Shown here: one piece after another, positions 4,030 to 63,130 of the stretch
Position numbering within the stretch: position 1 is the first letter of the stretch
Layout of the letters: every line of letters starts with the position of its first letter
NCBI RefSeq assembly: GCF_004010195.1
Contig: NC_057718.1
Location: forward strand, 72,345,018 to 72,409,017
From: Chiloscyllium plagiosum
Taxonomy: Eukaryota
Length of the DNA: 64,000 bases
Reading direction: 5' to 3'
Made by a program: the position numbers and the translations under genes
The notes under the pieces: generated by a model
Told to the model about the DNA's origin: nothing
The model's input: the letters and a program-made list of their open reading frames with translations, nothing else
Database searches by the model: none

Positions 4030-4980
4030 AGATAAATGTAGGTCTTTTACATTCAGAAGCCAGGGAAATTATTTTGTGGAACAAATAAATGGCAAAACAA
4101 CTGAACAGTATTTTGGTTCTGCCTTCACAGAGGAGAACACAAATAACCTCGCAGAAATGTTGTGGAACTAAGAGTCCAATCAGAATGCAGAATTAAAAGC
4201 TATCAGTACCAGTAAGGCAATGGGACTGGGAAATTAATAGGGTTAAAGGCTGACAAGTCACCAGAGTCTGATAATGTGCATCTCAGACTACTAAAGGAAG
4301 TGGCCGAGGAATTACTGGATATATAGGTGGTCATCTTCCAAAATTCTTTAGAATTCTGGAGGAGTTCCTACAAATTTGAGGGTGGCAAATGTAATCCCAT
4401 CACATAAAAAGGGAGGGAGAGGAAAAAAAAACAGTATTACAGACCTGTTACCCAAACTTCAGTCATGGAGAAAATGTTAGGATCACAAAAGACGTGATAA
4501 CAGAACATTCAGAAAGTATAGACATGATTGGATAAAGCAAGCATGGTTTTAATTTATGAGGAGAAAGTGAGGACTGCAGATGCTGGAGATCAGAGCTGAA
4601 AATGTGTTGCTGGAAAAGCGCAGCAGGTCAGGCAGCATCCAAGGAGCAGGAGAATCGACGTTTCGGACATATGAAAGGCAAATCATAGTTAACAAATTGA
4701 TTGGGAAGTGTTTGAGAATGAGGTAGCTAAATGTAACACATCTAAGTTTGCTGACAGCCCAAAACTGGACAGGATTAGGAGTTGTGAGGAAGATGCAACA
4801 AGGCTTCTGTGTAATTTAGACAAGTTGAGTCAGTGAGCAAACACATGGCAAATGAAATATAATGTGATTATGTAGTTACATGCTCTGGCGTGAAAAACAG
4901 AAAACCTGAAGATTATTTAAATGGTAACATATTGGTATGTGTGAATGTACAAAAGGATCTGCGTGTTCACCAGTCAATGA
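4030..4980 (+). mobile_element. Old CR1 ORF2 fragment, with a probable tail at about 8650-8785 beyond the LTR element
   Basis: Decayed KSPESD, YRPV, QHGF/MKGKS and KFADSPK motifs. Confidence 0.75.
4559..4670 (-). mobile_element. Short Penelope-derived element, family A, single arm
   Basis: aggagaaagtgaggactgcagatgctggagatc...gacgtttcgg interrupts the CR1 QHGF|MKGK codons. Confidence 0.8.
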
Positions 4981-4982
4981 AA

Positions 4983-7900
4983 AGATCTGGATTTGAGAGA
5001 GCTGGCTACACACATTCAGGTTGTTAAAAAAGCTAAAGACTCCCAAGCTGTTTCCTTAAGTGTTATTCAGTAGCCATTTTGGTACCACTCCCTTACAACT
5101 TCTCTTGAAAACAAAACAGGACAAAATATTCTCTTAAAGTGACAGCATCATCACAACTCCTGCTTAAAATAAAACATCAATATACAAAGATGGATTCATA
5201 TTTAAAATCCTTAGTCTTACTCTATTAGTACACTACAATCCATCTACATAACATTGACTCTTAGCATGCAACATTCATTACTATATAGTATTTTGGTCAT
5301 TCTACTCACGCCACTGAAGGCCTCCATCTTTCTTCATCAAAGCCACGACAACGCATCGGCAATTACATTTTCTCATCCTGCCACATGTATAATTTTCGAA
5401 TTGAATAGCTGCATTAATAAGCTCCATCTAAACAGTCTGGAATTTTCAAACCAAATGGCATGACTTTAAATTGGTATAGGCCATTTGATGTCATTTAATT
5501 GTCTTTGCTCTTTCGGGTAAAGGTATCTCCCAGTATCGTCTGAGTAAGTTCAACTTAGAAATATAAGCTGTTTGCCTCACCTTCTAAATATAGTCTTCCA
5601 ACGTGGAATAGGATATGAAATAAACTTTGTAACTACACTGACTTTGTCATAACCCACACATAATCATTGAGCACCATCTGATTTTGACACTATTACTATG
5701 GGCAAGCTCCAGTCACTGCAACTCACTTCAATTATGTTGTCTTTAAACATGCATTCAATCTCTGTTTGAACTTGTGCCAACTTTAGAAGGTTAAGTCTAT
5801 AAGGATATTGCTTAATTAGAATACTATTTCCTATTTCTATATCATAGAACATAGAACATAGAAGAATACAGCACAGTACAGGCCCTTTGGCCCTCGATGT
5901 TGCGCCGATCCAAGCCCACCTAACCTATACTAACCCACTATCCTCCATATACCTATCCAATGCCCGCTTAAATGCCCATAAAGAGGGAGAGTCCACCCAC
6001 ATTACACAAATGTGTAATTTGTTTAGTACTTCCCAGCTTATTTCCACATATCTCCCCATGTGGTAGTAATAACTCTTTCAGATCATTTCAATTTTCCTCT
6101 GGAAGGTAACTCAATAATTTACTCCAATTTTTGAGAACTTACCATTGCCCGATTTGAAGTGAGGAATGTCCAATTCAGAATTCTCTACTTGTTTCTTCAC
6201 TATGTTGTAACCAATAACATATTCTCCTTTGCTTTCCTTCCTTCAAGGTACCTTTTCAGCATATTCATATGATACACTGTCAGATTTCTTTCTACCTAGT
6301 GTTCTTATCAAAGAATTCACTTCACTGGATCTTCTTTTGATTTGATAAGGTTCATTAAACCTTGCTTATAAAGGTTCACATCACTGCAAGTAACACTAAC
6401 ATTTTGTTTCCACTTGTAAAATTGGAATTTTTTCATTTCTTGTCTGATTCCTGTTTCATCACATGCTGTGCTACTTTTAAATGCTGTTTAGTCAACTCAC
6501 CCACTCTATTTAATCTTTTCCTAAAATTTGACATTGTCGAAATATGTGGTCTCTGAACTCTGTCTCATTGTTTACTCCTTAATTAATTTCAGTGGTCTGC
6601 TCACCTCATGCCCAAATGGATAACTTTGATAGATTCATTTGGTGCATTCCTAATTGCAAAATGTACAAATGGAATACCTTTGTGCCAATCCTCTGCATAA
6701 TCTTAACTATAAATTTTCAACTTGGTCTTTAAAATGTGATGTCACCACTGTAATGCTCCCAATGATCCTGGATGGTATGTAGTGGATTTGAATTGTTTTA
6801 TTCCTATCTATAACTATCTATTTTATGCTATCTATAACTTCCCTGAATAATTTTAATGTAAAATTTGACCCTTGATCCAATTATGTCTCTGCGGGTAGTC
6901 CATATCTAGTAAAAATAAAATTGAGTAGGTCCTTTGATATTCTGTAATGAAATGGACTCTGGAAATAAGGTGGACACTTCCATTTTTGTGAACAAATAAT
7001 GATTCCCACATTTTGTTTTAAGAAGGGGTCCAATGCAATCAATTAACACTTTCTTCTCAAACAACCCCTGACCAGGTTGCAAATTCTGGTGCAGCTTTTT
7101 AGCAGTGAAAACACCTGATCTTTTTTACTTCACTTTCCCCAGTCATGGGTTTCCTATGATAAACAATCTTCATTGTCTGCTACCACCCAAGGATTTCTGT
7201 TTTCTCCAATTTCTATCCCTCACAAATTGAAATTGATATCAGAAGCCAAAGTTTGATTTATGAACCAACTCAATCACTGGCCATTCCAGCTGCTTCAGCT
7301 TACAGTTTTAACTGTCTGCTTTTCCATACATGCTCTCAGTACTACAGGAAGTGAATTTTTGAACTCCTCCAAAATAATCATATCAGATGATTATTGTAAG
7401 TTTGACTTATTTTCAATGCCCTACTACACCTACCAAAATTACTTTTTTTTGATCATTTCAACTCAACGTATGTTGGACCAGGGTCCCTCCTTAGATTCCT
7501 GAAACATTGTCTTTAGGCTTCTGGCACAAGCTCATATGTACTTAAGGTAGCATATTTCACCTCTTCATACTCCCCAGATACCTCCTCTGATAGTGATGCA
7601 AATACTTCACGAGTTCTACCAAGTTCACTGGCCACTTCATTTGCTTAGCCACTTTCTCAAATCAAATGAAAAAGGCTTCTACATCCTGCTCATCGAATGT
7701 AGGGAATGTTTAGACATATTTAGACAGATTCCCACCAAGCCTTTGGCTACAATTAGTTTGCTCATCTACTATCCTCTTCACTAAGTCGACTTTCCTCTCT
7801 AATTCAGCGAAAGGAAGGACTGCAGATGCTGGAGATTAGAGTCAAGATTAGAGTGGTGCTGGAAATGCACAGCAGGTCAGGCAGCATCTGAGGAGTAGGA

Positions 7901-8634
7901 AACTCAATGTTTTGGGCAGGAGCCCTTTTATCAGGAATTACTGATTTCTGATAATTCTGAAAGCCTTTAAGTCCAACAATCCTAAACACAACTTGGAATT
8001 ACTGATCCTAACAGGCCCCCCAATTTGTTATGGATCAGACCAGACCTCAAAATAGTTTAAAGGGGTAGCCTGGACCCTACCTTTCTCTTATTTTAAAGAT
8101 AGATATGAAATGTGATGTTCCAGATGCAATGTGACTGGCCAAACTACTTGACGTTAAGCAAAACACAATGTATGGAAACACAATAGTTAAAAAATGGACA
8201 AAAGAAAGTAGAATTTAGACTATTTGAAAGCTTAACCGAATGCTCAATACAATAACTATTACTAATTAACTGTTCCAATCTGAAGACCTTTCATTAACAC
8301 ACCGCTTGTCAAAAAGGCAAATTCAGACACAGATTCTCACATACAGTTCTCCAATCCGGGAGGAAACAACATAAAAAGAAAATTCAGAGAAAGTCGCAGC
8401 TCAGGCACATACATAGAGGCTTCCAACTTTTTGAAATCCTAATATCCTCTGATGTTACTGAAACCAGAAATATGGATCTGAGAGAGCTGGCTACACCCTT
8501 TCAGGCTGTTAAAACAAATCCAAGTCCTTCCAAGCTATTTACTGAAATTGTCTCCAGTAGCCAATTCTGCCTTACAACCTCTCTTCAAAAGAAGCTAGGG
8601 CAAAATAACCTCTTAAAGTGACAACATTGTCACA
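4983..8634 (-). mobile_element. Decayed Gmr1-like LTR retrotransposon (gag - integrase - RT order)
   Basis: 5' LTR at 8634-8026 (TG...CA), then a tRNA-Pro-like PBS (TGGGGGGCCTGTTAGGAT). gag FDEQDVEAFF..FEKVAKQMKWP at about 7700; integrase VLIDCIGPL at about 7045; RT IKQYPYRL...DWSLPIVIV at 5850-5660; partial 3' LTR at 5155-4983. Confidence 0.8.
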
Positions 8635-10106: not shown

Positions 10107-10250
10107 AAGCATCCAAGGAGCAGGCGAGTCAATGTTTCGGGCAATGCCCTTCACCAGGAATCATTCTGAAGGGCTTATGCCCGAAACATCGATCCTTCTG
10201 CTGGTCAGATGCTGCCTTACCTGCTGTGCTTTTCCAGCACCACACTTTTT
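10107..10250. mobile_element. Fold-back Penelope-derived element, family A, degenerate
   Basis: Inverted arms around ...tttcgggcaatgcccttc / gaagggcttatgcccgaaac... Confidence 0.75.
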
Positions 10251-10490: not shown

Positions 10491-10691
10491 TGATTTGGAG
10501 ATGCTGGTGTTGGACTGGGGTGTACAAAGTTAAAAATGACAACACCAGGTTAAAGTCTAACAAGTTTACTTGGAGGCAGTAGCTTTCGGAGCGCAGCTCC
10601 TTCATCAGGTGACAATCACCTGATGAAGGAGCGATGCTCCGAAAGCTGGTGCTTCCAATTAAACCTGTTGGACTATAACCTGGTGTTGTGA
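10491..10691. mobile_element. Fold-back Penelope-derived element, family B, with hammerhead cores on both strands
   Basis: Arms inverted about caggtgacaatcacctg; 12-bp TSD aattaaaaatct at 10479-10490 and 10692-10703. Confidence 0.8.
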
Positions 10692-10921
10692 AATTAAAAA
10701 TCTGTCTACTTCCTCCTTACTTTTAATGTCCCAACATCCACCGAATTCTGAGGTAATGAATTCCATAGATTTACAACCTTTTGAGAGAATTAATTTCTTA
10801 TTTTGGTTTTAAATCTGCTATCACTTCTCCTAAAACCATGATCTCTTTTTCCAGATTGCCCCATGAGAAAATATCCTTTCTACTTTATCCTTTCTCTTTC
10901 ATGGCTTATCTCCTCCAATTA

Positions 10922-16905: not shown

Positions 16906-17117
16906 AGGAGAAAGTGAGGACTGCAGATGCTGGAGATCAGAGCTGAAAATGTGTTGCTGGAAAAGCGCAGCAGGTCAGGCAGCATCCAAGGAACAGGAGA
17001 ATCGACGTTTCGGGCATAAGCCCTCCTGAAGAAGGGCTTATGCCCGAAACGTCGATTCTCCTGTTCCTTGGATGCTGCCTGACCTGCTGTGCTTTTCCAG
17101 CAACACATTTTCAGCTC
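16906..17117. mobile_element. Fold-back Penelope-derived element, family A, young
   Basis: Near-perfect inverted arms; 15-bp TSD tggttttaatttatg at 16891-16905 and 17118-17132. Confidence 0.85.
17026..17053 (+). ncRNA. Minimal hammerhead ribozyme core, family A
   Basis: CTGAAGA-A-GGGC ttat GCCC-GAAAC-GTC: core boxes, helix II, palindromic AC/GT helix III and GUC cleavage triplet; helix I is weak in this copy. Confidence 0.65.
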
Positions 17118-18920
17118 TGGTTTTAATTTATGTAGTTTTTATGTTTGATGGATCTTGCCACACTAAGGCTCGGCGATTTGTGATTTGAATTCCTCCTCTC
17201 TGGAATCTAAATGTTACTGCAGAACGTTATGGCTAATGACTTAATTAAATGGTGAACCTGGAACATCAACGGGAGTCACTCACCTTTTAAGAGGAAGAAG
17301 ATACCTTCAAGTCTTAGAAAGGAGAAGGTAGATATTGCTTTGTTACAGGAGACACACTGGGATGATAGGGAGCATTTGAAACTACAGCAGAATGGCTTTG
17401 AATGGGTTTATTTTTCATCTTTTAATACCAGAAGCAGGGGAGTGGCTATATTGATTAGGAGGAATCTCCCATTTAAGTTAGTAAGTTAAAGACACCCACG
17501 GGAGGTTTGTAATTCTCAAAGCCCTGATAAATGAGGAAGAATATGGTGTTTTAAACGTTTATTGCCCTCTGGCTCATCATCTCAAATTTCTGGTAGATGC
17601 ATTCTCTAAATTGATCAGTCTCAAGTCCCGGCATGTCATTATAGGGGGAGATTTTGACTGTCTCATGGATCCCACAGTAGACAGGTTGCCCAAAGGCCCC
17701 CCGATACCCTCTGTACAAACTAAATAATTAGTGGATCCGTGTGTTGAGTTAGAGTTGATGGATGTCTGGAGGCGTCTCCACCCTACAGGCAGGGATTTCA
17801 CATTTTTTTCCAATCCACACAGATGTCACACCAGGATTGATTCTTTTCTGACCCTCGTGGCAACCCTGGACTTGATGGCATTTTGTACGATTGGTAATAT
17901 TATTATCCCTGATCATGCTCCAGTGTACCTGTTGGTTAAGATTAAGGACGTTACAGTGGGTTCAAGGCACTTACGAATGGATCCCTTTATCCGCAAGGAC
18001 AATAAGTTTGTGGAGTACCTCTCTAGGGAATTTCGGGCATTCCTAGGCATTAACTCAGGCTTGGTTTCCTTTGGGAAACTGACAAAGCCTATACCAGCGA
18101 CTTAGGTATTTCCTACTCTGTTAGTAGGAAGTAGTAGAAGGGTGAACAGCAAAGTCTCCTCGAAGCACAGTTGAAGGCAGTCGAGAAGGCTTACTTTGAC
18201 AGGTCCTCATTTTTCAAGCTACAGAGGATTACGACGCTGAGGTCTGCATTGAATTCCGTGCTCACACAGACAGCAAAGAAGGAGCTTACTTTCGCAAAGT
18301 AAAGGTTATAGGAGCGTGGTGACAAGCCAGGCAAGTCTCCCCAGGAAAAGGAGTGCCCCTCAAGCCATTACATTGATTAGGGAAGGGTCTGGGAACTTAA
18401 CATGCGATTCCAAAAAGATGAATGTGGCATTTCAGATATTTTACTCCAAGTTATACCAATCTGAGGGTTGTGAGGATGGGTATGTCAAGATGGAGTCCTT
18501 CTTCAAGGATCTGGAGCGACACCCGAACAAGAGTCTTTTCTCAAAGCCCCCTTATCAGAGCAAGAGGTGCAGGAGGCTGCGAAGCAGCTTCAGGATGGAA
18601 AGGCGCCCGGTCATGATGGACTTCCCAGCGAATTCTATAAGGAATTTATAAACATTGTCAGGCCGGATGCTCAACATGTTCAATGACTCATACAGTTATG
18701 ATCGTCTCTTGCCATGTCTGAGAAGGGCCAATATTTTGCTTATTCTTAAAAAAGGGAAGGTCCTGGACCTTAGTAGAAGCCCATTTCAGTCTTAAATGTA
18801 GACTTCAAAATCCTCTCTAAGACCATTGCGTTAAGGCTGGAGAGTGTTACCTTCTATTGTTAAAGAGGACCAGATGGGCTTCATAAAGGGCCATAGATTT
18901 TCCAATAGTGTTAGGAGGCT

Positions 18921-23034: not shown

Positions 23035-24420
23035 CATAGAACAGTACAGCACAGCACAGGCCCTTCGGCCCTCGATGTTGTGTTGGCCTTTTATCCTACT
23101 CAAAAATCAGACTAACCTACACACCCCTCAATTTATTGCCATCCATGTGCTTGTCCAGCAGTCGCTTAAATGTTCCAAATGTATCTGACTCTACTAGAAC
23201 CGCTGGCAGTGCATTCCACACTATATAAGTAAAGAACCTACCTCTGACATCTCTCCTAAACCTTCCTCTGATTACCCTAAATTTATGTCCCCTTGTGATA
23301 GCCATTTCTGTCCTGGGAAAAAGTTTCTGGCTATCCACTCTATCTATGCCTTTCAACATCTTGTACACCTCTATTAAGTCACCGTTCATCCTTCATCCCT
23401 CCAATGAGAAAAGTCATAGCTCTCTCAGCCTTTCTTCATAAGACATGCCCTCCAGTCCAGGCAGCAGCCTGGTAACTCTACAGACCTGCAGACTAACCTC
23501 GCAGCTCTTAAACTCAATCCCCCTGCTAATGAAAGCAAACACATCATATGCCTTCTTAACAATCCTATCAACCTGGGTGGCAGCTTTGAAGGATCTATGG
23601 ACATGGACTCCATGGATCTCTAATTATAAAAGGTTATGCCTCAGTTACAGAGTGCTAGTGAGACTACATCTTGAATACTGCGCTCAGTTTTGACATCCTC
23701 ACCTAAAGAAGAATGAAAATGCATTAAAGGCAATTCACAGAAGGTTAACTAGATTGACACCCAGAATGACAGGCAGAGGTGGGTACTGCAGATGCTGGAG
23801 ATTAGAATCAAATTTAGAGTGATGCTGTAAACGCACAGCAGGTCAAGCAGCATCCGAGGAGCAGGAAAACCGATGTTTCAGGCAAAAATGACATTCCCGA
23901 TGAAGGGCTTTTCCCCGAAACATCGATTTTCCTGCTCCTTGATGGTGCCTTACCTGCTGTGCATTTCCAGCATCACTTTAATCTTGACACCCAGAATGAG
24001 CAGACTGTCTAATGGGGAATCATTAGACAGGCAGATCTTATTTTCACCAGAGTTTAGAATAGCAAAGGGTGAATTGATTGAAGTTTCTATTAATCTGAAT
24101 GGTCTGGACAAGATGGATGTAGAAAGATGTTTATTTACTTCTGTGAATGAACAATGAGATTACCCTTTTATGATAAAAATGGAGAGAGTTTTGTTTGGAA
24201 GATTGTGCAGCTTTGGAAAGCTTTGCCTCAGAAGATAGTGGAGGCAGGACCATTGAATATCTTTAAGGCAGAAGTAGATTGATTCCTTTGCCTAACAAGA
24301 ATCTAAGGTTATGGGGATGCATGTGAAGGTGCAATGTATAACACAAACTAATCAGCCATTATCCTCTAGGGGTGGAGCAGGCTTGAAGAGCTGAATGGTC
24401 TACTGCAGCTCGTAATTCGC
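23035..24420. mobile_element. Two CR1 3' fragments (minus 23035-23612, plus 23620-24420)
   Basis: GDLIEVYKML and LVRLHLEYCAQF motifs with CR1 tails. Confidence 0.8.
23770..23983. mobile_element. Fold-back family-A element
   Basis: 16-bp TSD ttgacacccagaatga at 23754-23769 and 23984-23999. Confidence 0.8.
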
Positions 24421-27246: not shown

Positions 27247-27740
27247 TCAAAAGGTCGAAGAGTGAGGTGTTGGAAAAGCACAACCAGTCAGGCAGCATCT
27301 GAGGAGCAGGAGAATGGACGTTTCAAGCATAAACCTTTCATCAGGATTGAGGCATGTGGCCCAAGAGGCCTGAGAGATAATTGAGAGGGGAGGTGGGGTT
27401 GGGGAAAGGTAGCTGAGAATGCGATAGGTAGATGAAGGTGAGGGTGAAGTTGATAGGTCAGAGAGGAGGTTGGAGCGGATAGATGGGAACGAAGATGAAC
27501 AGATAGGGTAGCCCAAGAGGGCAGTGCTGAGTTGGAAAGTTGAATTTGGGATGGGGGGGGGGGGGGAAAAGAAGGGAAATGAGGAAACTGGTTAAATCCA
27601 CATTGATCCCATGTAGTTGCAGGGTCCCAAAGTGGAAGACGAGGCCTTCTTTCTCCAGGCATGGGGTGGTTAGGGCACGGCAGTGGAGGAAGCCCAGGAC
27701 TTGCATCTCCTTGGCGGAGGAAGAGTTCAAGATGTGGATT
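27247..27740 (-). mobile_element. Penelope-like element 3' end ending in the family-A terminal sequence
   Basis: LEKEGLVFHFGTLQLHGINVD (C-terminus of the GIY-YIG region), a pyrimidine-rich UTR, then aatcCTGATGA...GAAACGTC. Confidence 0.7.
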
Positions 27741-34598: not shown

Positions 34599-34944
34599 AG
34601 TTTCAGCTGGCAGCTGAACATTAAGGACACTGGTGAGCACTGGGTCATTGCATGTGATGTGTACCTGTACATGCTGATAATTCACCATCCTAGTTACACC
34701 TTCCCTTTTGAGTGTTAAAGCCCTGCTTCAGAGTTTGGATAAATCTCTCCACCTGGCTGTTTTTTTGCCAGTTGATATGGAGCCGATCTCACAATTATGA
34801 TACTGTAATTTTCCAGGTAATCCTCAAACTCTTACACCACAAACTGTGGATAATTGTTACTCACGACTTGTTTGGGATTCTGTAGGGATTCTGTTAAAAA
34901 TGACACAACACCAGGTTATAGTCCAACAGGTTTAATTGGAAGCA

Positions 34945-34979
34945 CACTAGCTTTCAGAGCAATGCTCCTTCATCAGGTG
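34945..34979 (-). ncRNA. Minimal type I hammerhead ribozyme, family B, at a Penelope 3' end
   Basis: CAC-CTGATGA-A-GGAGC att GCTCT-GAAA-GCTA-GTG: helix I CAC/GTG, helix II, palindromic AG/CT helix III and CUA triplet. Confidence 0.7.
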
Positions 34980-35576
34980 ATAGTGGAGGGCTCAATCGTA
35001 ACACAGAATTTATAGCAAAAATTTACAGTGTGATGTAACTGAAATTATACATTGAAAAATTGATTGTCTGTTAAGCCTTTCATCTGTTAAGCCTTTCATC
35101 TGTTAGAGTACAGTGATAGTTTCACTTCTTTCATGTGTAAACTGTTAACAATGGTGATAGCTAGACAATATATTGAAGGTGTTGGCCCCCTGTGTTCTCT
35201 GTCTATGCCATGATGCTTAGATTGATTCTAACCTAAAAAGTGAGATAACGGACTTTTACATAAATTCATGCAGTTTTTGAGCTCAGAGTTCTACATGAAT
35301 GCATGCAGTTTTTGAGCAAAGTACAATGTAACCCTGCAAGTACAAATTCACCCCACAAAACATATGTGTGCATGTGGGTCTTTGTCTGTCTGTGTGTGTG
35401 TCTGTCTGGGTTGGGGGTTGTGAGTATGAGAAAGTGTATGTGTGTGTATAGTTTTTTGCAGAGTGTCTTAAGTCTGTGAGGGGGTGCATGTGTGAGTGTG
35501 GGAATGTGTGTGTCTGTAAGGGTGTGTGTGGGTGTCTGTGTGCGCGTCTGTGTGGATGTGTGTCCATGTGTATGTG

Positions 35577-35675
35577 AGGAGAAAGTGAAGAAGGGCTTAT
35601 GCCCGAAACGTCGATTCTCCTGTTTCCTGGATGCTGCCTGACCTGCTGCGCTTTTCCAGTAACACATTTTCGGCT
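35577..35675 (+). mobile_element. Family-A short element with an 11-nt inverted stub
   Basis: 12-bp TSD catgtgtatgtg at 35565-35576 and 35676-35687. Confidence 0.8.
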
Positions 35676-37363
35676 CATGTGTATGTGAGAGTGTGTGTTT
35701 GTAGGAGTATCTGTGTGTGTGTTTAGTGGTCAGCTGTAATGTTACATGAACCCAAGGTCCCTCCCTATGGGTACCGAACTTAGCTATCAGCCTCTGCTCA
35801 GCCACTTTTCTCTGCTGCCTGTCCCGAAGTCCACCTTGGAGGATGGTCACCCGAAGGTCCGAGGCTGAATGTCCTGGACCACTGAAGTGTTCCCCAACTG
35901 GGAGGGAACCCTCCTGTCTGTTGATTGTTGTGTGGTGCCCATTCATCCGTTGTTGTGTAGCCTTTGCTCGGTTTCCCCAATGTACCATGCCTCCAGGCAT
36001 TCTTGCCTGCAACGTATAAGATAGAATTTGGCTGAGTCACATGAGTATCTACCATGTACAAGGTGGGAGGTGTCCCCATGTGTAATGGTGGTATCTATGT
36101 CCACACTCTGACACGTCTTGCAGCATCTACCGTGACAGGGTTGTATGGGGTTGTCCTGAGAGCCGGGCAGCTTGCTACGAACAATGATCTGTTTGAGGTT
36201 TGGCGGTGGTTTAAAGGCAAGTAGTGGAGGTGTGGGGAAGGTCTTGGTGAGGTGCTCATCCTCATTGATAATGTGTTGCAGGTCATGAAGAACATGGTTT
36301 TTCAGCTCCTGGGAAGTACTGAACAACGAAGGGTACCCTGTCAGTTGCAGCATGTGTCTGTCTCCTGAGGAGGTCATTATGGTTCCTTGCTGTGGCACGT
36401 CGGAACTGGCGGTCGATGAGTTGAGCATCGTACCCCGTTCTTGTGAGGACATCCTTGAGTACTTCCAGGTGTCCATCACGTTCCTCCTCATCTGAGCAGA
36501 TCCGGCGATCAATAATTTGCTGATTTTTAGGCAGTTCAAATCACCCCCACATCCCTGGTTCTGACACTGGATTTATTACAGGAAATGTGAAATGAAGAAG
36601 GCAGTAGACAGGTGTTTCAGGGCAAAAGGATCTCTGCGTTAATCAAATACAAATGTATAACACAAGAAATAAAAGGCAAGTGCAATAAAACAGTGAAATC
36701 AACACAGTTATACAGAGGACAGTGATTAGATACACTATTAAATTGAATACAAGTTAAACACTATTGGAACTAAATATTAGGTCTTTATCATAGAAACTAT
36801 TCCTTCGGCTTCCTACCCTTAGGGTTCCCTGCTCTGTAACCACCCAACTCCCACTCCCGGTTAGCAAGGTTCGAAACTTTGGGATTTCGGAAATTAAGCT
36901 CACCACTTGGGTGAATTCGCGATCCTGAAACACAAGTGGCTGTTCCCGCTTGCCGTAGTGGGTGCTTTACTGAGGATTATAGACGGTGTAGGCCTTCAGG
37001 CTGCGTTGAGTCCGCTGATGCAGTAGGATTCGTATTGGAATTACCTGGTGAGTATTTGATTCTTCTTATAATCTGGTGATTATTGTGAGCTGGTTTTCAC
37101 CTCAGGATGTGCTTGAGGCCTTGTGGTGCCGGTCAGGTCGGTAGTTTTCGGGGGTTGCACCGCTGGTTTCCCTGGCAAGGAACAGGCCTGTGTCGGTATG
37201 TCTCGTTTCTCAGAGCGTTAACTATCTGTGATCCTTCTCCTGGTGGTAGCTGTGGGGAATAACTCAAATGAGGAGGGCCTACATTATACAAAATTGCATG
37301 CCATTTACCTCCCCATCACATCTGGTTTCCTACAATAATCGCTTTGTTGTTTCTTCTGTAATG

Positions 37364-37852
37364 ATTTGGAGGTGCCGATGTTGGACTGGGGTGGACAAAG
37401 TTAAAAATCACACAATTCCTGAGGAAGGGCTTATGCCCGAAACGTCGATTCTCCTGCTTCTTTGATGCTGCCTGACGTGTTGCGCTTTTCCAGCAACACA
37501 TTTTTCAGCTCTGATCTCCAGCATCTGCACCCCTCACTTTCTCCTAAAAATCACACAATACCCGGTTATAGTCCAACAGATTTATTTGGAAGTAATAGCT
37601 TTCGGAGCCCTGTTCCTTCATCAGGTGGTTGTGAAATATAAAATCCGAAGACACAGAATTTAGAGCAAAAGTTTACAATCCAGCTCTTTTCAATATATCA
37701 TCTCAGTTGCACCACACTGTAAACGTTTACTCTAAATTCTGTCTTCCGATTTTATACTTCACAGCTACCAGATGAAAGAGCAGTGCTCCGAGAGCTAGTG
37801 CCTCCAAATAAATCTGTTGGACTATAATCTGGAGTTGTGTGATTTTTAACTT
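37364..37852. mobile_element. Fold-back family-B element containing a family-A insert at 37417-37545
   Basis: Inverted arms; the insert has a 14-bp TSD aaaaatcacacaat (37403-37416, 37546-37559) and the core CTGAGGA-A-GGGCttatGCCC-GAAACGTC. Confidence 0.8.
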
Positions 37853-38569
37853 ATGTGATGAATTGGTCTTCCTGATTATTAGAGTAGGTGTTTGTGATTA
37901 AATATCCATTGAAGTTGGAGGTCTTGAATTTGTCAGGGGCGAAAGTGAGGACTGCAGATGCTGGAGATCAGAGTCAAGATTAAAGTGGTGCTGGAAAAGC
38001 CCAGCAGGTCAGGCAGCATCCGATGAGCAGGAAAATCAACATTTCGGGCAAAAGCATCGATTTTCCTGTGTCTTGGAATTTGTAGAGACTCCATGTTGTC
38101 TGAATTCAGTTTGTCATAAAGGTTTGATCATTGTTCTTGTAGAGTAGACCTGACAAAGGAGCAGCACTTCAAAAGTTTGTACTTCTAAATAAACCTGTTG
38201 GACTATAACCTGGTGTTGTGTGATTTTTTTTTAACCTTGTGGAGCTGAGATGTGAACAGGTGTCCCCAGTTTCTAGACTAGCAGCATAGCTCAGCTGCTA
38301 GTTTTATTTTTGTTAAGTTTAATTTTGAAAAACAATCTCCAAGATTCTGGTAGAAGCCCAGAATGGTGAGGAATCTTCTCAAAGCAATTGAGATTTTTGC
38401 TTAACCCTACAATTCTGAAACTTGGCAAATATTTCATCCAGGATAAAGTAAGGACTGTAGATACTGGAGATCAGAGTTGAGAATGTGGTGCTGGAAAAGC
38501 ACAGCAGGTCAGGCAGCATCTGAGGAGCAGGAGAATTGACGTTTTGGCACAAGCCCTTCATTCATCCAG

Positions 38570-41119: not shown

Positions 41120-42960
41120 TGTCTTTTCCTGTTATTATCTTTGAAGACTTCCATCAGACCACTCCTTAACCTTCTGAATTCTGGAGAAAATAGACCTAAT
41201 TTGTATAATCTCTCCTCATAGATTAACCCCTGAAGTCCAGGTATCATTCTTGGAAATCTATTTAGGAGAAAGTGAGGACTGCAGATGCTGGAGATCAGAG
41301 CTGAAAATGTGTTGCTGGAAAATCTAATTATTTTCCGTCCAAGACCACTATCTCCTTCCTAAGATGTGGTGCCCAGATCTGCTCACAGTACTCGAAGTGG
41401 GGTGTTACCAGGGTTTTGCATAACTGAAGCATGGTTCTGCATTTTAAAAACTTCAATTACAGAATGAGGGTATCACTGGTTAGGTCAGTGTTTATTGCCC
41501 ACACCAGAAGCTAGTTAAGAGTCAACCACATTGCTGTGGCTCTGGAGTCACTTTTTTAAATTAATTCATGAGATGAGGGCATCGTTGGCTAGGCTAGCAT
41601 TTTTATTGCCCATCCCTAATTGCTCAGAGGGCAGTTAAGAGTCAACCTCATTGCTGTGGGTCTGGAGTTGCAATGTAGGTCAGACCATGTAAGGATGACA
41701 GTTTCCTTCCCTAAAGGACATTAATGAACCTTTGGGATTTTCTGACAATTGACAATGGATTCATGGCAACCACTAGATTCTTAATTCCAGTTGCCATGGT
41801 GGGATTTGAACCCGGGCCCTCAGAATATTCCCTGGATTTTTGGATTAACAGTCCAGTGATAATAGGACATTGCCTCCCCGTATTGTTGGCCAGACCAGGT
41901 AAGAATGGCAGTTTTCTTTCCCAAAGGACATTAATGGACCAGATAGCTTTTTCTTGATAATCGACAATGGTTTTATGTTCCTTATTAGATTTTTAATTTC
42001 AGATTTGTGTTGAATTCAATTTCCACCATCTGCCTTTTCAGGATTTGAGCTGGGTTCCCCAGAATATTACCTGGGACTCTGGTTCAACACTCCAGTGATA
42101 ATGATACTAAGCTATTGCCATCCTTGTGGTCAAGTCCTCTTGACAAAACGGCTAGCATTCCATTAGGTTTCTTGATTATTTTCTTCCCCTGTTCAAGACA
42201 TTTTAACGATCTATGCACCTGCACCCCCAAATCTCTTTAGAAGTCAGTTGTCTAAGGCAAAGTAATTATTCATAATGTCTGCCATTTCACCATAGTTATT
42301 GTCGATATCCCCACTTTCAGTCTTTATACCATCTAGAAAGTACCTTTTTTGGTCATACTTGCTTCCACTGAATTCCATCTGCCACAGTTTTGCCCCTTCA
42401 TTTCATCTATCCCTTTGTAATTTTATACTGTCATCTGCACTGTCTGCAATGTCACTTAACTTCACATCATTAGGAAATTTGGATATATGTCTTTCTATGC
42501 TATTATTCAAGTTGTTATTAATTGAGGTTTCCCATTGATCTTAATGAGATACCACTGGTCACATCTTGCTATTTTGAGTACCTTCCCATTATCCCTACTT
42601 TGTATTACCTGCCACTCAACCAATTTCCCAGCCTTACCAGTAATTTACCCTCGATTCCAAGGACTTCTACCCTAGTTACAGACTTTTACATGGAATGTTA
42701 GCAAAAGCCTTCTGGAAGTCCGCATAAGCAACATCTGTAGGCAGTTCCCTATCCACTATCTTAGTCAGCTGTTCAAAAAACTCAAATGTTTGACAAGCAT
42801 GATTTACCTGTCATTGATCCATGCTGGCTGTCCCTAATTAATTGAAACTTTTCAAGATGTTCAGTTACCCCATCCTTGATTATAGATTCCAGCAATTTCT
42901 CACCAAAGATGTTAAGCTACTGGTCTGTAATTCCCTGGTTTTCTTATGTTTCCCTTTTGT
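41120..42960 (-). mobile_element. CR1 fragment with nested SINEs (41460-42125) and a family-A stub (about 41264-41320)
   Basis: CR1 RT motifs such as DFQKAF on the minus strand; SINEs similar to 51660-52030. Confidence 0.65.
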
Positions 42961-45814: not shown

Positions 45815-46890
45815 AAATTAACTGGAAAAATTAATGAGATGGGAAGTTGATAAATCTCCAGGATCTAATAGTCTGCATCCCAAACTATTGAAGGAGTTGG
45901 TAATAGGAGGAATCAAAGCCTTGGTAATCATCTTCCAAAACTGTATAGATTCTGGAATGATTCCTGCAGATGGTAAGCTTACAGTTGTCATCCCACTATT
46001 TGAAAAAGAAAGAAGAGAAAAACAGGGAACTGTAGACCCTTTAACCTTGTCATTTGTAGAGAAAATGCTACGATCCATCATAAAGGACATGATAAAAGGA
46101 CTTTTGCATGAAAAAGATTTGATTGGGTACCGTTAGCATAGGTTTATGAATGGAAAATCCTGTTTGACAAATTTAAGATCTTTTGAAGACATTGCGAACC
46201 ATCTTAGTAAAGAGAGTCAATGTGGTATACTTGGATTATCAGAAGGCTCTTCATAAGATTCCCTAGAGGAGGGAAATTAAAGCACATGGCAAAGGTGGAA
46301 ATGTGCTGCGTGAATTAGGAATTGTCTAACAGACAGAAAACTGAGAATAAGAATACATGTCTTATCTCATATTGGCAGACTGTGATTAGTGGGATATTAG
46401 GAGAAAGTGAGGACTGCAAATCTGGAGATCAGAGCTGAAAATGTGTTGCTGGAAAAGCGCAGCAGGTCAGGCAGCATCCAAGGAGCAGGAGAATCGACGT
46501 TTCGGGCATGAGCCCTTCTTCAGGGTAGTGGGATATTGCAAGGATCAGTAATTTGGGCCCCAGTGATTCATGATACGTTTCAATAGTTTTGATAAAAAGT
46601 GTTTCCAAATTTGCACATAACACAAGCCTGAGCAGGAATGTGTATTGAGTAAGATGTAAACCATTTTTGAGAGAATTTCAACAGGGCTTAGTAAATGGGT
46701 AAGAGCTTGGCATATGCAATACAGTGTTGAAAAAATGTGAGGTTATCTTCTTTGGTAGGAAGAACAGATATGCAGAGTATTTCTTAAGTGGTCAGAGGTC
46801 AGAAGTTGTAGATGCGAAAAGGGACCTGGGTGTCCCTGTCATTAAGCCACCGAAGGCTGATATGTTATTAGGACGTTATTAGGAAGGTTA
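45815..46890 (+). mobile_element. CR1 RT fragment with a family-A insert at 46399-46525
   Basis: DKSPGSNSLHPK motif; insert has a 12-bp TSD tagtgggatatt (46387-46398, 46526-46537) and an intact hammerhead core on the minus strand. Confidence 0.8.
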
Positions 46891-52320: not shown

Positions 52321-53978
52321 TGTTAACTAAACCAAATACCCAGAAAAGATCGCCTTGCCTCGTAATCTGTTAAAATATGGGTAACAGAGAATTCCCAAAT
52401 TCTACTATTTGAAGAAAAATAACAATTTATTTTCATAACTCTAATAGTGAAAACTAAACAACAACTATTCACAAATCTAAGCCCCCATTTTTTTAGAGAC
52501 TACTTTCTATCTGACCCCAACTCTATAAAAAATACGCTGTTCCAATAACACACTTATTAAATATTAAAGTAACTTAATCTCAAGACCACACAGTCTCTGT
52601 CTTCCCTACTGCTGCTGATATCTCTGGGTTATCTTCTTTCTATTTTACTGCAAATAGGTTTCACATGAAAAGATATCTTTGGAGAGTGTTTTCAGATTTC
52701 TTTGAGAGCAAGATTTTAGATGGGCTGTTAACTCTCTGGCTCTTTAGCAGTTGCTTCCTGTTCGATGGCAGTTGCTCTCCCTCTAATTTTCAAAATACTG
52801 GGTTTATGTATCCCCCAAGACACATTATATGCTTATACCATTGGTTTCCTGGTATCAAAACAATAAAATTCAAAATCCATTGGCTTCTGGTATGCTGGAC
52901 ATAATTTAAACTAAGCAAATCAGAGCAGGACTTATACACTTAATGGTAAGATCCTGAAGAGTGTTACTGAGCAAAGAGACCTTGGAGTACAGGTTCATAG
53001 TTCCTTGAAAGCAGAGTCACAGGTAGATAGGATAGTGAAGAAGGGGTTTGGTATGCTTTCCTTTATTGGTCAGAGAGAGAAAGTGAGGGTTGCAGATGCT
53101 GGAGATCAGAGCTGAAAATGTGTTGCTGGAAAAGCACAGCAGGTCAGGCAACATTCAAGGAACAGGAGAATCGACGTTTTGGGCATAAGCCCTTCTTCAG
53201 GAATTGGACAGAGAGGTCATGTTGAATCTGTATAGGACATTGGTTAGGCCACTTTTGGAATACCATGTGCATATCTGGTCTCCTTATTGGAAGGATGTTG
53301 TGAAACCTGAAAGGATTCAGAAAAGATTTACAAGGATATTGGCAGGGTTGGAGGCTTTGAGCTATAGGGACAGGCTGAATAGGCTGGGGCTGTTTTCCCT
53401 GGAGCGTCAGAGGCTGAGGGGTGACCTTTTGGAGGTTTATGAAACTGTGAGGGGCATGGATAGGATAAACAGACAAGGTCTTTTCCCTTCGGTGGGGTAA
53501 CTCAGAACTAGAGGGCATAGGTTTAGGATGACAGGGGAAAGATATAAAAGGGACCTAAGGGGCAATATTTTCATGTAGACGTTGGTGTGTGTGTGGAATG
53601 AGTTGCCAGAGGAAATGGAGGATGCTGGTACAATTACAGCATTTAAAAGGCATCTGAATGGGTATATGAATAGGAAGGGTTTAGAGGGATACAGGTCAAG
53701 TGCTGGCAAATGGGACTAGATTAGGTTAGGATATTTCGTCGGCATGGACGAGTTGGACTGAAGGGTCAGTTTCCGTGCTGTACGCTCTATGACTCTATGC
53801 CTTATAACTTGGTTAAATTAGAATTGTTGTCAAAACAACAAACAAAACTCAAGTATCCATTTAATAGTTAATTCATTTGGAACAGCCCGACCTTTAGCTG
53901 GCAGTTATGGCTGTACTTTAAATTCAGGAAAGGACTTTCTATCTTAAAGTAAATATACATGCTTTTGACTTCATAACA
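52321..53978. mobile_element. Solo LTR interrupted by a young CR1 (52913-53798, +), itself carrying a family-A insert (about 53078-53202)
   Basis: GTAT|TGTTA...TCATAACA|GTAC; internal similarity to 45039-45714. Confidence 0.7.
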
Positions 53979-53979
53979 G

Positions 53980-55900: not shown

Positions 55901-56329
55901 GTACATTAAAGGGAAAGGCTTAGAGGGATATGAGCCAAATTCAGGCAAGTGGGACTTGTTCAGTTTAGGATACTTGGTTGGCATGGACATGTTGGACTGA
56001 CGGTCTGTTTTCTTTATGTACAACTATGACATTCTCCTGAATCGGTATTGCAACTCTCCTGTCCCTTTCTATCATGCCTGAAGCATCTAAACCTTGACAC
56101 TTTTAACTGAATCCTGCTTTTCACTCAGGAGAAAGTGAGGACTGCAGATACTGGAGATCAGAGTCAAGTGTGTGGTGCTGGAAATCCTGATGAGGGGTTA
56201 TGCCTGAAAAATCGATTCTCCTGCTCCTCAGATGTTGCCTGACCTGCTTTGCTTTGCCAGCACCACACTGCTCTTCTCTCAGCCAAGGTTTTGTAATGGC
56301 TATCACATTGTTGTCCCACGTACTAAGCT

Positions 56330-57601: not shown

Positions 57602-58245
57602 TTTTGGATGTATGTTTGCTCGCTGAGTTTGGAGGTTCATTTCCAGACATTTCGTTACCTTACTAGGTAACATCTTCAGTGGGCCTCATGCGAAGCAATG
57701 CTGAAAATTCCTGTATACAGACAATGAGCAAAACTAACGTCATTTACAAAATACCGTGCAAGAACTGAAACAAAAACTACATTGGATAGTTAGGCAGAAA
57801 ACTAGCCACCAGGACTAGCCACAAAAAGACATGACCCTCTCTCACTAGTATCCTCACATATGGATGAGGAAGGACACCACTTCGACTGGGACAACACATC
57901 CATCCTAGGACAAGCCAAACAAAGACATGCATGAGAATTCCTAGAAGCATGGTATTCCAACTCTATCAACAAACACATCGAGTTAGACCCCATCTACCAT
58001 CCCCTGAGAAAAGGAACAGGAAGTGACTTCACCACAGGAAATAACATCACCACAGGAAATGACATCACCAACCCAAAGAAACCCAAACATATAAATAGAA
58101 AGCAGGAATTTTCAGCATTGCTTCGCCTGAGGCCCACTAAAGATGTTATCTAGTAAGGTAACGAAACGTCTGGTAATGAACCTCCAAGCTCAGCAAGCAA
58201 ACCTACATCCAAAACCTCAACCTGAACTACAAATCTTCTCAAAGC
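57602..58245 (+). mobile_element. Penelope 3' fragment with an inverted terminal repeat copy, family C
   Basis: VIYKIPC..YIG and FDWDNTSILGQ motifs; 112-bp inverted repeat at 57602-57713 and 58103-58214. Confidence 0.85.
57643..57682 (-). ncRNA. Minimal hammerhead ribozyme, family C
   Basis: CCA-CTGAAGA-T-GTTACC tagtaa GGTAAC-GAAA-TGTC-TGG; the plus-strand partner at about 58134-58173 has a mutated core (CTAAAGA). Confidence 0.65.
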
Positions 58246-60024: not shown

Positions 60025-60222
60025 ATGGCTTGTTTTCATAACGTTTCTGGACAACATCCTAAACCTGTTGGACTGGTCCTTCATTATGGAACAGCAGGAT
60101 TTCGTGCAAGGGCTGAACAGCTGGATCATGTGATGTATCGCATGGGTTTGCTGGCAGTGTTGAGGTCCAAGAAAACCAAATCAACTATTGGTGTGATGGT
60201 CACAGCATCCCATAATCCAGAA
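60025..60222 (+). CDS. PGM3: Phosphoacetylglucosamine mutase (phosphoglucomutase 3), first coding exon; the exon starts at 60023
   Basis: [66 protein letters not shown], with YGTAGFR and the catalytic-Ser motif TASHNP; acceptor tttctttttaatag; donor gaa|gtaag (phase 0). Confidence 0.95.
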
Positions 60223-60644
60223 GTAAGATTCAAAAGGAAATTAATTTATGAATGGACTGAGATGAAGGACAGAAAAATACTGATGTTACACTATGCCTTT
60301 TCTAATGTTTCTGACGTTCTAACATGTTTGATGGTTCCACAACAAATACTTGAACACAACTTTGAAGCAAGAATTGACCAGTTGGCCCTTTTGAACCTGT
60401 GCTTCCATTTAATAAGATCATGATTGTGGTTTCAACTCCACTCTCCTGTCTTTTGTCTCGCCCCTATTATCCTTGTTACCCTTGTTGATCAAATTTCTAT
60501 TTAACTCATCTTGAATAAATTTAATGACTTGGCCTTGTCTGCTCTCTAGGGAACATAATTGTAAATACTAACAACACTGGGAAAAAAAAGTCTTCTTACT
60601 ATTAAATTCCGCTTCTTGTTCTAGACTACGTCCAGAAGAAGATG

Positions 60645-61160
60645 TAGCCAAGGTTGGATGGTTTGAGCTATTGGGGGAGTTTAAATAGGCTGGAGCTATT
60701 TTCCTTCGCATGTCGAAGGCTGAGGGGTGACCTTTCAGAAGTTTATAAAATCATGAGGGGCATGGGTAGGATAAATAGCCAATATCTTTCCCCCAGGAAG
60801 GGTGAATTATCTGGAGGGAGATAGAGCATAAAGTACTTATTTTTGTGGTTTGTAGTTTGTTCAGAATAGAGAGCAAAACTTGAGGACATACGTTTAAAGT
60901 GAGAGAAGAAAGATTTAGAAGGAACTTAAGGGGTAGCTTTTTCACACAGAGAGTGGTGCAAGTATGGAATGAGATGCTATGGGAAGTGGTGGAGGCTTGT
61001 ACAGTTGAGGATATTTAAAAGACATCTGGATGGGTATATGAATAGGAAGAGTTTAGAGGGATATGGGCCAATTGCCAGCAAATGGGATTAGATTAATTTA
61101 AGATATCTGATTGGCATGGATAGGTTCAACCGACCGTTCTGTTTCCATGCTGTATGATTA
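60645..61160 (+). mobile_element. CR1 3' fragment in a PGM3 intron with a 77-bp foreign insert
   Basis: RLRGDLSEVYKIMRG motif and tail; insert at 60800-60876. Confidence 0.85.
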
Positions 61161-63130
61161 TCTTTCCTATACCCAGGAGACCAGAATTGGCTTTTTCCAA
61201 CATCATCTGTTCCATTTCAGAAATTCACAATATACCTCTTCCTGGCCCAGGGTAACCATGTATGCTGTCTACTGTACATGGCCTCTGGTCATGATCAGCA
61301 GTCTCTTTAAGATTATTTATTTCTCACTGAGACAAATCTTCCTGAAAATGATTAAATAACTCCTTAAAAGTTTGCCATTGTACATTTGCTGTCTGACCTA
61401 TCAAACCTGTTCACTTCAACAATCTCTCTTCATACTTTGGTAGTTATGTTTATTTAGATTTAAAATTAAAAGGTCAGTATTAGACCCTTATAACTCAGTG
61501 TGAAATTCGACCAGGAATGATCGCTGTAGCCTAGAAGCACCTTTATTTTGAGGTTAATGATTAATGTACTTTCGTTAGACATTACACACCTCATTTTGTT
61601 TTCCTCTATTGTTTGCCCTACAGTGTAGCTCCTGTTAGGCAGAGTATAGAGTAGTCCCACAAATGATGCCTTATCTTCCTTTTCTTATCTCTACTCAAAC
61701 TGATTTTACATTTTATTTTGAGCTAAGTTCATCTTTCACTATTGTATGGAAGGATATTCTTAACTTGCAGAGCAATGTCACCATTGTTTTCCTAGTTTCA
61801 TGTCTTTCCATGATATCAAAATGTCTTCAATATTGAAGTTCTAGCTTTGGTCATCTTGCTGCAGCCAGGTGTCTGTATGCATTTCTATTTGAGCTGTCAG
61901 TCCATCCATTTTGTTATGAATGCTGCACACATTCAGATATAGAGCCTTTAATTCTGACTTTTTAACATTCGTGTAATCTCTGGCTATTTCTACTCGTGGA
62001 TTCTTAAATCAGCAAGCATGCTTTGTCCCTTCCAACTGTTATTCAAATTGCTACTGCGCTGTATTACCTTCTTGTTTCCCTTCGATTTAACAGATTTTCT
62101 GTCACATGATTATTTCCCCCAACTGTTTAGTTTAAAGCCCTCTCTGCTCTGCTCGTTATATGAAAATTCCTGGTGAAGGGTTTATGCCCGAAGAACTGAC
62201 TCTCCTGTTCTTTGGATACTTCCTGACTTGCTGTGCTTTTTTAGTGCCATGCTTTTCGACTCTGACTCTTCAATATCTGCAGTCCACACTTTTTCCTTAT
62301 TATATGACTTGCCAGAATTCTAGTCTGAGTACAATTCAGGTGAAATCTGTCCCAACAGTACTGTTCTCAGCTACTTTCACTGGTCCCCATGAGTCAACGC
62401 ATTCAACCTTCTCAGTCTTTGAGCCAAGCGTTCATCTCGCTAATCTTATTTTATCTAAATTAGTTTGCTACTGACTCAGGTAATAATCTAAAAAATATTG
62501 CCTTAAAGTTCTGTGCTTTAATGTAGTCTCTTGCAGCTGATATTTCCTTGACAGAATCCCTTTCCTAGTCCAATCTATGTTGGCTGCAACAGCTAGATTC
62601 TCTGTCCTTGTACTTCAAATTCTTCTCCAGCCTTGAGCAGATATTGTGAATCTTCGAACCCAGCAGGCAGCACAGCCTTCTGAACTCTTGTTCATAACTG
62701 CAGAGAACTGTGTCTAACTCTCAACCATAATCTAGTCTCATACTTGAATTTTTTTTTATCAGGGTGCCATGATTAGATCATTCATCCAACTTCCAGCCTT
62801 CACGCTCATCCATACAGGCTGCAAGAACTTATAGTTTTTGGACAATTCTAAGGACTTTAGCTTCTCCACTCTATCTTCTCGATCTACTTAATGCCTTAGT
62901 TGTGGTCATATCCGCCTGTACCTACCATTTCCCTAGTCCGATAAATTTATCCTGAGCAATATGATAGCCTTCTAGAGGAATTTATTTAATGCCTCCATGA
63001 TGTTGTGCCTCTAAGCTGTGTCTGTAGCTTGGCCTCTAGCTTATTGACATTGAGCCATAGCCCCTCAAACCACGGATATATATTGCGGAAATGGTTGTGT
63101 TGGATCATGATAGCATTCATCAATTCTTAT
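61160..63130 (-). mobile_element. Highly decayed CR1 5' half with a family-A insert (about 62165-62297)
   Basis: LGYSDH APE motif at about 61530; patchy similarity to 49400-50870. Confidence 0.5.

Follow-up and report, generated by a model that had tools for sequence, protein, structure and literature searches.

Short hammerhead-bearing inserts of Chiloscyllium plagiosum are terminal repeats of Penelope-like elements and likely arise as run-off copies of a leader RNA

The stretch analysed here (the window) comprises 64,000 nucleotides (nt) of the shark Chiloscyllium plagiosum (NC_057718.1, positions 72,345,018-72,409,017; genome size 3.56 Gb) and is strewn with short inserts of two families, A and B, that carry the motif of a minimal hammerhead ribozyme. 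An initial annotation had taken these inserts to be protein-free parasites of Penelope, akin to retrozymes or short interspersed nuclear elements (SINEs). We find instead that both families are the terminal repeat, ~130 nt long, of two protein-coding Penelope-like elements (PLEs) of the Neptune type. The inserts are likely (at a probability of roughly 0.75) dead-end run-off copies of the elements' leader, made afresh at each site and not from short masters.

Inserts in the window and in the genome

Inserts were present at all ten coordinates named beforehand. BLAST returned 15 A-type loci with 21 arms (two arms being members of a fourth, related family) and four B-type loci with seven arms. 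The suggestion that many inserts are head-to-head inverted dimers (fold-backs) held in that such structures exist, but they account for only 5/15 A and 2/4 B loci. Positions within family A are given as 'ref'; numbering begins with 1 at the fixed outer end (window 16906) and follows the strand that does not carry the hammerhead, the hammerhead strand being the sense strand of the element. On this scale, core position C3 is ref 126 and the first base of helix I ref 130, and the scissile bond joins ref 99 to 98. The inserts are listed below by window position, with target-site duplications (TSDs) where noted; fold-backs have no single strand. ORF, open reading frame; UTR, untranslated region; pLTR, pseudo-long terminal repeat.

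4559..4671, minus: A solo arm, ref 1-113, ending within helix II, no TSD
7805..7938, minus: solo arm of an older A subfamily, end at ref 130
10107..10248: degraded A fold-back, ref 76-130 / 119-41, without clean TSD
10493..10698: B fold-back, one arm tailed and the other tail-less, TSD 12 bp; core on both strands, neither satisfying the full descriptor (see below)
16906..17119: young A fold-back, ref 1-122 / 128-33, TSD 15 bp
23770..23982: older A fold-back, TSD 16 bp
27263..27496, minus: read-through A copy, 73% identity, its pLTR running on into autonomous-element sequence (3′ UTR, end of the ORF); extent mapped up to the end of the 296-nt reference
34891..36572, minus: 3′ part of the autonomous partner of B, with a broken linker/GIY-YIG ORF, a microsatellite 3′ UTR and a pLTR that keeps an intact hammerhead at 34976
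35577..35676, plus: A insert, ref 125-35 after an inverted tail stub of ~13 nt, TSD 14 bp; sits inside the microsatellite of the B element
37364..37852: long-armed B fold-back, split by a nested A copy
37415..37545, plus: complete A solo unit, ref 130-1, intact hammerhead with core from 37419, TSD ~14-15 bp
37935..38055, minus: older A solo arm
38148..38228, plus: degraded B solo arm
38440..38557, minus: A solo arm, ref 1-119, TSD 9 bp
41264..41322, minus: A stub of 59 nt without hammerhead
46399..46524, minus: A solo arm, ref 1-127, TSD 12 bp
53077..53204, minus: A solo arm, end at ref 130, TSD ~12-13 bp
56127..56267: A fold-back, ref 1-58 / about 126-45, degraded 15-bp TSD
62166..62297, plus: degraded A solo unit with broken core, TSD 8 bp

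To gauge abundance, we sampled the genome in 120 stretches at round coordinates (1,151,572 non-N bases). This random sample held 220 A arms in 162 loci, 107 of them single-armed and 46 simple fold-backs, together with 76 B arms. Family A thereby reaches ~140 loci per Mb, or 1.8% of the sampled bases, which extrapolates to ~450,000-500,000 A loci genome-wide.

Several placements deserve mention. The 4559 copy and the TSD of the 16906 copy, 12 kb apart, have 15 nt of flank in common (window 4544-4674; 16891-16905); the former lies in what we take to be a CR1-like reverse transcriptase (RT) fragment and may have arisen as a patch templated locally or through secondary mobilisation of a short insert, with 16906 as the source. 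The 16906 fold-back itself is inserted in a broken, presumably L1-like, long interspersed nuclear element (ORF1/ORF2, window 15757-19347, plus strand) with an internal duplication of 171 bp. Copies of A recur inside B elements (window 35577-35676 and 37415-37545; genome loci L005, L025, L203 and L205), several of them at or near the B tail boundary, and a target preference for pLTR DNA is possible. The fourth family (window 14805-14872 and 54236-54313) has only the ref 46-81 segment in common with family A, which makes this segment a candidate RT-binding element.

The inserts are pLTRs of protein-coding elements

The Penelope origin proposed for the inserts was borne out, as both families proved to be pLTRs of ORF-bearing PLEs. 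Family A is continuous with the 3′ UTR, GIY-YIG endonuclease (EN), CX4CxxC linker and RT of a young family of PLEs: its arm matches the 3′ end of RT-linker-GIY-YIG copies with 87-100% identity, and it lies downstream in sense at 10 of 12 RT loci, the other two running into gaps. At its other end, family A continues into a 36-nt spacer and then the ATG of the ORF, so that the A unit is both the 3′ end and the 5′ leader of the element. Family B was found in sense downstream of a second such endonuclease at 15/15 loci, one of them within the window (34891-36572); the 5′ linkage was traced for family A only.

At locus L098, Pfam reported RVT_1 (E=4e-4) and GIY-YIG (E=1.5e-4), both just short of the curated cut-offs. 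Between RT and EN stands a CX2-5CxxC linker, reading CNRKKCKTC in the A partner and CHGGRCKTC in the B partner, a motif that marks Neptune/Nematis PLEs (PMC8557442). A repeat at the 5′ and 3′ ends (5′ for A only), a tail of 30-40 bp at one end and an inverted, 5′-truncated copy complete the picture, and by these sequence features A and B are the terminal repeats of autonomous Neptune-type PLEs. All five of the commonest short-copy haplotypes occur in ORF-linked copies too. The notion of protein-free parasite families is thus not supported: A and B belong to ORF-bearing elements and have haplotypes in common with them, there is no inherited centre, and tandem dimers are few. The N-terminus of the A partner carries a variable, Ala/Thr/Pro-rich low-complexity stretch before the RT (L132 1000-1360, L138 880-1360).

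A minimal hammerhead at the start of the leader

The motifs CTGANGA-A-helix II-GAAA-CGTC (A) and GAAA-GCTA (B), as well as the minimal type I architecture that had been read into them, are present. The units combine a conserved core, helix II, a palindromic helix III and an NUH site, and each of helices I, II and III differs between A and B on both of its sides, a comparison read directly from matches that had been selected for pairing. A strict minimal-hammerhead descriptor gave 41 matches in the random sample vs 0, 0 and 0 in three Markov controls of equal length. In the window, the full descriptor is satisfied by two copies only (37419, plus; 34976, minus); in the 16906 copy, the junction takes away the 5′ strand of helix I. 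Rfam hammerhead models gave no match over the inserts, where only spurious microRNA (miRNA)-hairpin matches appeared. Helix I has three of four pairs in young A (with a U-U mismatch), four of four in one subfamily and three to four in B, and is absent from predicted folds; z-scores for folding of the whole unit (+0.6 to -2.8) were uninformative.

Whether the core is better conserved than the arms, a check proposed at the outset, depends on the copies compared. Across subfamilies and all copies it is, with 0/10 core columns vs 9/35 arm columns below 85% (p=0.006) and no core column varying among subfamilies, but young copies show no difference (p=0.34). The CpG positions of the core decay, and core and helix III are intact in 37/114 arms. 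A core that lacks subfamily variants, yet decays in the inserts, implies that selection acted on the source elements and not on the inserts.

Arms stop at a putative transcription start and often gain a C

Outer ends of A arms cluster at ref 1-3 (82/220) and ref 31-50 (79/220). An optional tail of 30-40 bp is known from PLEs (PMC8557442), and in an element of Anolis it is delimited by two internal RT starts (PMC11167929). At ref 1, the target flank is similar to the sequence with which the element itself continues, in 8/8 positions tested, with G at position -1 in 49/106 cases compared to a background of 21%.

Inner ends fall elsewhere than the ribozyme would dictate: among 66 young arms, 26 end at ref 124-135 and only two at the cut site (ref 95-102), with no end peak found at the site of cleavage. 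When 57 young arms were taken without pattern selection, stops numbered 7, 4, 4 and 16 at ref 127, 128, 129 and 130, respectively, and four over ref 131-138, with 22 arms reading through. Ref 130 is the A of TCATTCC, at the 5′ edge of the hammerhead and the first base of helix I, and it fits the Initiator (Inr) consensus, YYANWYY. In Drosophila virilis Penelope, an internal promoter with Inr and downstream promoter element (DPE) has been located within the pLTR (PMC2377424). Among 30 loci with an ORF start, 11 begin at ref 123-130 and five extend further into the 3′ UTR; in 14/30, a downstream second unit ending at ref 121-131 abuts mid-ORF sequence without homology, 0-10 extra bases lying at the joint.

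The base that follows ref 130, where the template would give G, is C in 4,874 and A or T in 3,219 exact matches genome-wide, counts that leave other G endings aside. C also follows in 11/16 unselected young arms that stop there. One base before ref 130, C was found in only 13 of the first 100 cases (hand count), and 19/20 sampled C loci are true ends, about half of them unambiguous additions. Read-through copies have G at ref 131 in 28/30 and C in 1/30, the single C copy being pattern-selected; a C excess at that position, which would mark homologous strand transfer, was not seen. An extra base from a reverse-transcribed cap has been described at full-length L1 and SVA ends (PMC2912911). We infer from the added C that the RNA 5′ end was capped.

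A further class of junctions arises where the sequence, after reaching ref 130, restarts ~30-65 nt back and in many cases stops at ref 130 anew, with as many as four rounds. We found 118 exact-pattern re-copy junctions genome-wide, and among the 100 listed the base after ref 130 was C in 37, A in 9, T in 9 and G in 45 (hand count). A jump onto the ribozyme-cut 3′ end, which would land at ref 99, found no support, as ~4/35 junctions do so and most land at ref 94-98 or further in. At loci L254, L264 and L269 (around 1500), the hammerhead core of ~35 nt is re-copied two to four times in tandem, with every re-copy ending at ref 127-130, which can be read, by analogy, as telomerase-like reiteration at a template boundary. 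Runs of 7-9 A at the template-jump junctions of L224, L234 and L263 suggest untemplated tailing or poly(A) capture.

Fold-backs are probably assembled from separate arms

The long, variable TSDs ascribed to the inserts are real. They measure 9-17 bp with a mode of 14-15, and 31/48 A fold-backs (44 from the random sample, four from the window) score at least 9 vs 0.4% of 281 shuffled flank pairs; for B fold-backs, 8/18 reach this cut-off vs 0/99 shuffled. Given this spread, the fixed-length TSDs of DNA transposons, named beforehand as a refutation, are not what the inserts carry. Among individual window copies, we recovered TSDs at 16906 (15 bp), 10491 (12 bp), 23770 (16 bp), 35577 (14 bp) and 46399 (12 bp), but found no clean TSD at 4559 and 10107.

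Two tails were seen in 0/29 random fold-backs; the tailed arm is longer than the tail-less one, and either arm may be tailed. Centres are heterogeneous, and recurring ones are found in different subfamilies. This excludes a fixed fold-back master: a centre present in 16/30 top matches was query-selected and spans several haplotypes and end points, and two random copies with one centre are of different subfamilies. The arms of one fold-back agree at subfamily sites in 94% vs 75% for shuffled arms. Post-insertion homogenisation was rejected as its cause, with non-diagnostic agreement near the shuffled level (0.945 vs 0.919; young copies 0.960 vs 0.952), and the arms mutate independently. All this fits priming from both nicks, on a single RNA or on sister RNAs. 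At genome locus L296, each of the two arms terminates with ref 130 plus C, and foreign bases separate them.

As RNA, the 16906 and 10491 copies are predicted to form single hairpins (-185 kcal/mol for 16906). The predicted pairing probability of helix II is 0.0 in fold-back RNA vs 0.91-0.97 in solo copies, and a fold-back transcript is thus predicted to bury its ribozyme in a long hairpin.

RNA reads and host context

RNA evidence came from one run of raw reads, of which 2% was read and 3,281 reads aligned; the library is single-cell polyA, from a matching organism whose species may differ from our source. A second run (X21) gave 0 aligned reads. Depth was ~2,000 on the unit vs 1-13 on the ORF, with reads in both directions. 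In 93% of the aligned reads, the sequence continues into unrelated sequence, with loose ends at ref ~130, ~37-46 and 1-3. These reads fit passenger transcription and say little on cleavage. Two raw reads join ref 1 to ref ~129, as a circular RNA of unit length would, but genomic dimers explain such joins as well.

A PGM3-like (phosphoacetylglucosamine mutase) exon lies at about window 60050-60225 on the plus strand (E=1e-15). The statement that the inserts lie in introns holds for the 62166 copy, which is 3′ of this exon on the same strand, but did not extend to the other copies: scanning 271 of 316 candidate ORFs, a test that is weak for short exons, revealed no further host exon. An effect of fold-backs on host pre-mRNA, as had been envisaged, is unsupported, given the predicted loss of helix II in fold-back RNA and the small share of arms (37/114, see above) with intact core and helix III.

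How the inserts may form

What mechanism could produce such inserts? In family A, the unit forms the ORF's 5′ leader, with the hammerhead at its start. Transcription would begin at the Initiator-like A at ref 130 and yield a capped RNA. The GIY-YIG endonuclease would nick both target strands ~12-16 bp apart, as the Anolis element studied in vitro suggests by analogy, and the RT would start internally on the RNA, at ref 1 or ref ~31-50, via short primer-template matches. It would then copy 90-130 nt through the uncut hammerhead, run off the 5′ end and often add a C opposite the cap. The cDNA end, in an order of events that we reconstruct from the genomic structures, might be joined to the target, leaving a solo unit; or to a second cDNA, copied from that RNA or a sister RNA after priming at the other nick, leaving a head-to-head fold-back with one tail; or the cDNA might slip back and re-copy, or jump without homology into the ORF. 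Once inserted, the copies decay neutrally, and transcripts of fold-backs should hide the ribozyme as described.

Several observations weigh against this reading. The match of target flanks to the element may reflect nuclease preference instead of priming. The stop is a band and not a single base, with 8,439 exact matches leaving the template one base earlier and 8,930 reading through to ref 138 genome-wide. About half of the sampled C ends are equally readable as microhomology with the TSD or the partner arm, and an RT that simply favours C is an alternative to a cap. The B boundary is loose (0-8 nt, 16/20) and without clear C. Ratios of short to ORF-linked copies are uneven by haplotype (40:4 and 49:15, in a biased sample), and some mobilisation of short inserts is possible, 4559 as a secondary copy of 16906 being an example. 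Finally, no pile-up of RNA starts or ends appeared in the single RNA run, whose library type is unsuited to reveal it.

Might the inversion stem from self-priming instead, be it through snap-back of the cDNA or through an antisense template as proposed elsewhere (PMC3846280)? This would predict the agreement of arms at subfamily sites and the short overlaps at centres equally well, and some centres are indeed mini-hairpins (L020). We nevertheless deem it unlikely compared with priming from both nicks: either of the two may be the longer, tailed arm, RT-start positions and target microhomology are seen at both outer ends, and the two arms of L296 look like two separate sense-templated cDNAs.

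That A and B are self-standing retrozyme- or SINE-like families, transcribed, self-cleaving as dimers and moved in trans by Penelope proteins, appears improbable on the evidence at hand. Solo units do begin at the putative start site and may retain an internal promoter, as in D. virilis Penelope (PMC2377424), pLTRs can mobilise other DNA in trans (PMC3846280), and tandem pLTR-derived retrozymes have been reported from vertebrates including one chondrichthyan (bioRxiv 10.64898/2026.07.22.740005). The high read depth on the unit, the flank common to 4559 and 16906 and 19 head-to-tail junctions point the same way. However, these 19 dimers (exact young A pattern, genome-wide) all differ at the junction and consist of two to three pieces without arrays, as compared to >8,000 exact stops at ref 130; no tandem head-to-tail units occur in the window. 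A common genomic flank unites one pair only among 168 distinct tailed arms, the commonest haplotypes are not private to short copies, the RNA reads are passenger-like, and the cores decay at CpG. Neither did Rfam detect a tRNA, 7SL or 5S RNA head of a SINE over the inserts.

A similarly poor candidate is ordinary 5′ truncation, whereby the RT would start on a long read-through RNA, at its 3′ pLTR, and stall at the hammerhead, the boundary being a pause site. Such pieces have been taken as truncated PLEs in the literature (PMC4209133, PMC8557442), and the reading through of 22/57 young arms and the spread of stops across ref 116-130 agree with it. Yet the fall beyond ref 130 is sharp (16 stops vs four in the next eight positions) and comes where the copied strand would already have opened helices I-III. 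In addition, the C excess is restricted to the ref 130 position, re-copied and jumped cDNAs halt at ref 130 again, and the target flank matches 5′ UTR sequence, which is absent from a terminal 3′ pLTR. As for miniature inverted-repeat transposable elements (MITEs) moved by a DNA transposase, the inverted arms of 90-130 bp are reminiscent of them, but variable TSDs, asymmetric ends in place of symmetric, fixed terminal inverted repeats, variable centres that are not inherited, 107/162 single-armed loci and sequence identity to PLE pLTRs leave this explanation next to no chance.

Run-off copying also invites a broader conjecture, which we regard as doubtful. Penelope replication might resemble that of retroviruses without a tRNA: target-primed reverse transcription (TPRT) would begin ~95-130 nt from the capped 5′ end, and the strong-stop cDNA would be moved to the RNA 3′ end, where hammerhead cleavage would provide a 32-nt terminal repeat (start to cut site) as the acceptor. 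The half-million short inserts would then be failed transfers, and re-copying a telomerase-like reiteration by an RT related to telomerase reverse transcriptase (TERT).

Relation to known elements

Solo and inverted Penelope pLTRs with minimal hammerheads are already known as objects. The insertion units of EN+ PLEs of the Neptune/Nematis type (PMC8557442, PMC3846280) resemble those described here in the order RT-CX4CxxC-GIY-YIG, the pLTR at both ends, the inverted head-to-head copy, the tail on one end and the variable TSD. The present inserts differ in consisting mostly of the leader alone, in their density (~140 loci per Mb), in the sharpness of the inner boundary and in the added C. In these reports, the inversion was put down to resolution by the endonuclease or to an antisense template on which self-priming occurs; where they touch on the matter, template polarity was left open (PMC3846280) and the hammerhead's function called unclear (PMC8557442).

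Similar in mechanism is the Poseidon element PAc of Anolis carolinensis (PMC11167929), with its two internal RT starts downstream of the hammerhead that define the tail, both target strands nicked and extended, and uncut RNA as the main template. Its ATG lies within the hammerhead, whereas that of family A lies 36 nt past the outer RT start; multi-copy mRNAs were proposed for PAc, and capped-end run-off is not described in the main text of that report. The minimal PLE hammerheads catalogued previously (PMC4209133) share the type I fold, the extra base before helix II, the loopless palindromic helix III and the short helix I. They are mostly solo, with some opposite-strand pairs 100-700 bp apart regarded as 'probably truncated PLEs', and their activity is low even as dimers. 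Here, in contrast, helix II has 4-5 bp, and helix I of young A a U-U mismatch. Non-LTR retrozymes (bioRxiv 10.64898/2026.07.22.740005; LTR, long terminal repeat) are likewise non-coding, pLTR-derived and equipped with a type I hammerhead, but their definition calls for tandem units that each hold a complete hammerhead, while head-to-tail dimers are rare by-products in our material.

Non-homologous jumps at a template end are familiar from the end-to-end template jumping of R2 and from retroviral strong-stop DNA. L1 twin priming and cap reverse transcription (PMC2912911) provide a parallel in which two target ends primed on one RNA lead to inversion with microhomologies, and full-length 5′ ends carry an extra G. 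In contrast to the L1, R2 and retroviral cases, both primings would here be internal, near the 5′ end, and both arms copy the leader, resulting in a perfect fold-back. A run-off boundary at an Initiator with added C, re-copying and mid-ORF jumps were not found in the published PLE literature searched, a search whose reach ended short of most subscription papers and Repbase; nor did it yield anything on Penelope hammerheads of sharks.

These repeats are a major genome component and liable to mis-annotation as MITEs, SINEs or miRNA hairpins. Their junctions bear on matters that the cited papers leave open, namely the template strand, the origin of pLTRs, tails and inverted repeats, and the purpose of the hammerhead; our data favour a capped sense RNA as the template, copied through the uncut ribozyme from two internal starts. 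The inserts are probably not independent parasites, and their junctions would record the copying mode of a poorly understood class of elements. The junctions supply exact coordinates for cap analysis of gene expression (CAGE) and for the existing in vitro TPRT assay.

Other repeats in the window

A third hammerhead family, with a 6-bp helix II, occupies window 56626-58214 and 20359-20472, with inverted pLTRs flanking an endonuclease fragment. It adjoins a broken, presumably Poseidon-like, PLE RT without an obvious cysteine linker and has 12 matches in the 1.15-Mb random sample. Remnants of an LTR retrotransposon (RT-RNase H and an integrase zinc-binding domain) lie at 38715-39457 on the minus strand. 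The window further contains a tandem repeat of 70 bp in 3.9 copies (262-531) and a degenerate CT/CA minisatellite with a unit of 26-30 bp (13846-14713).

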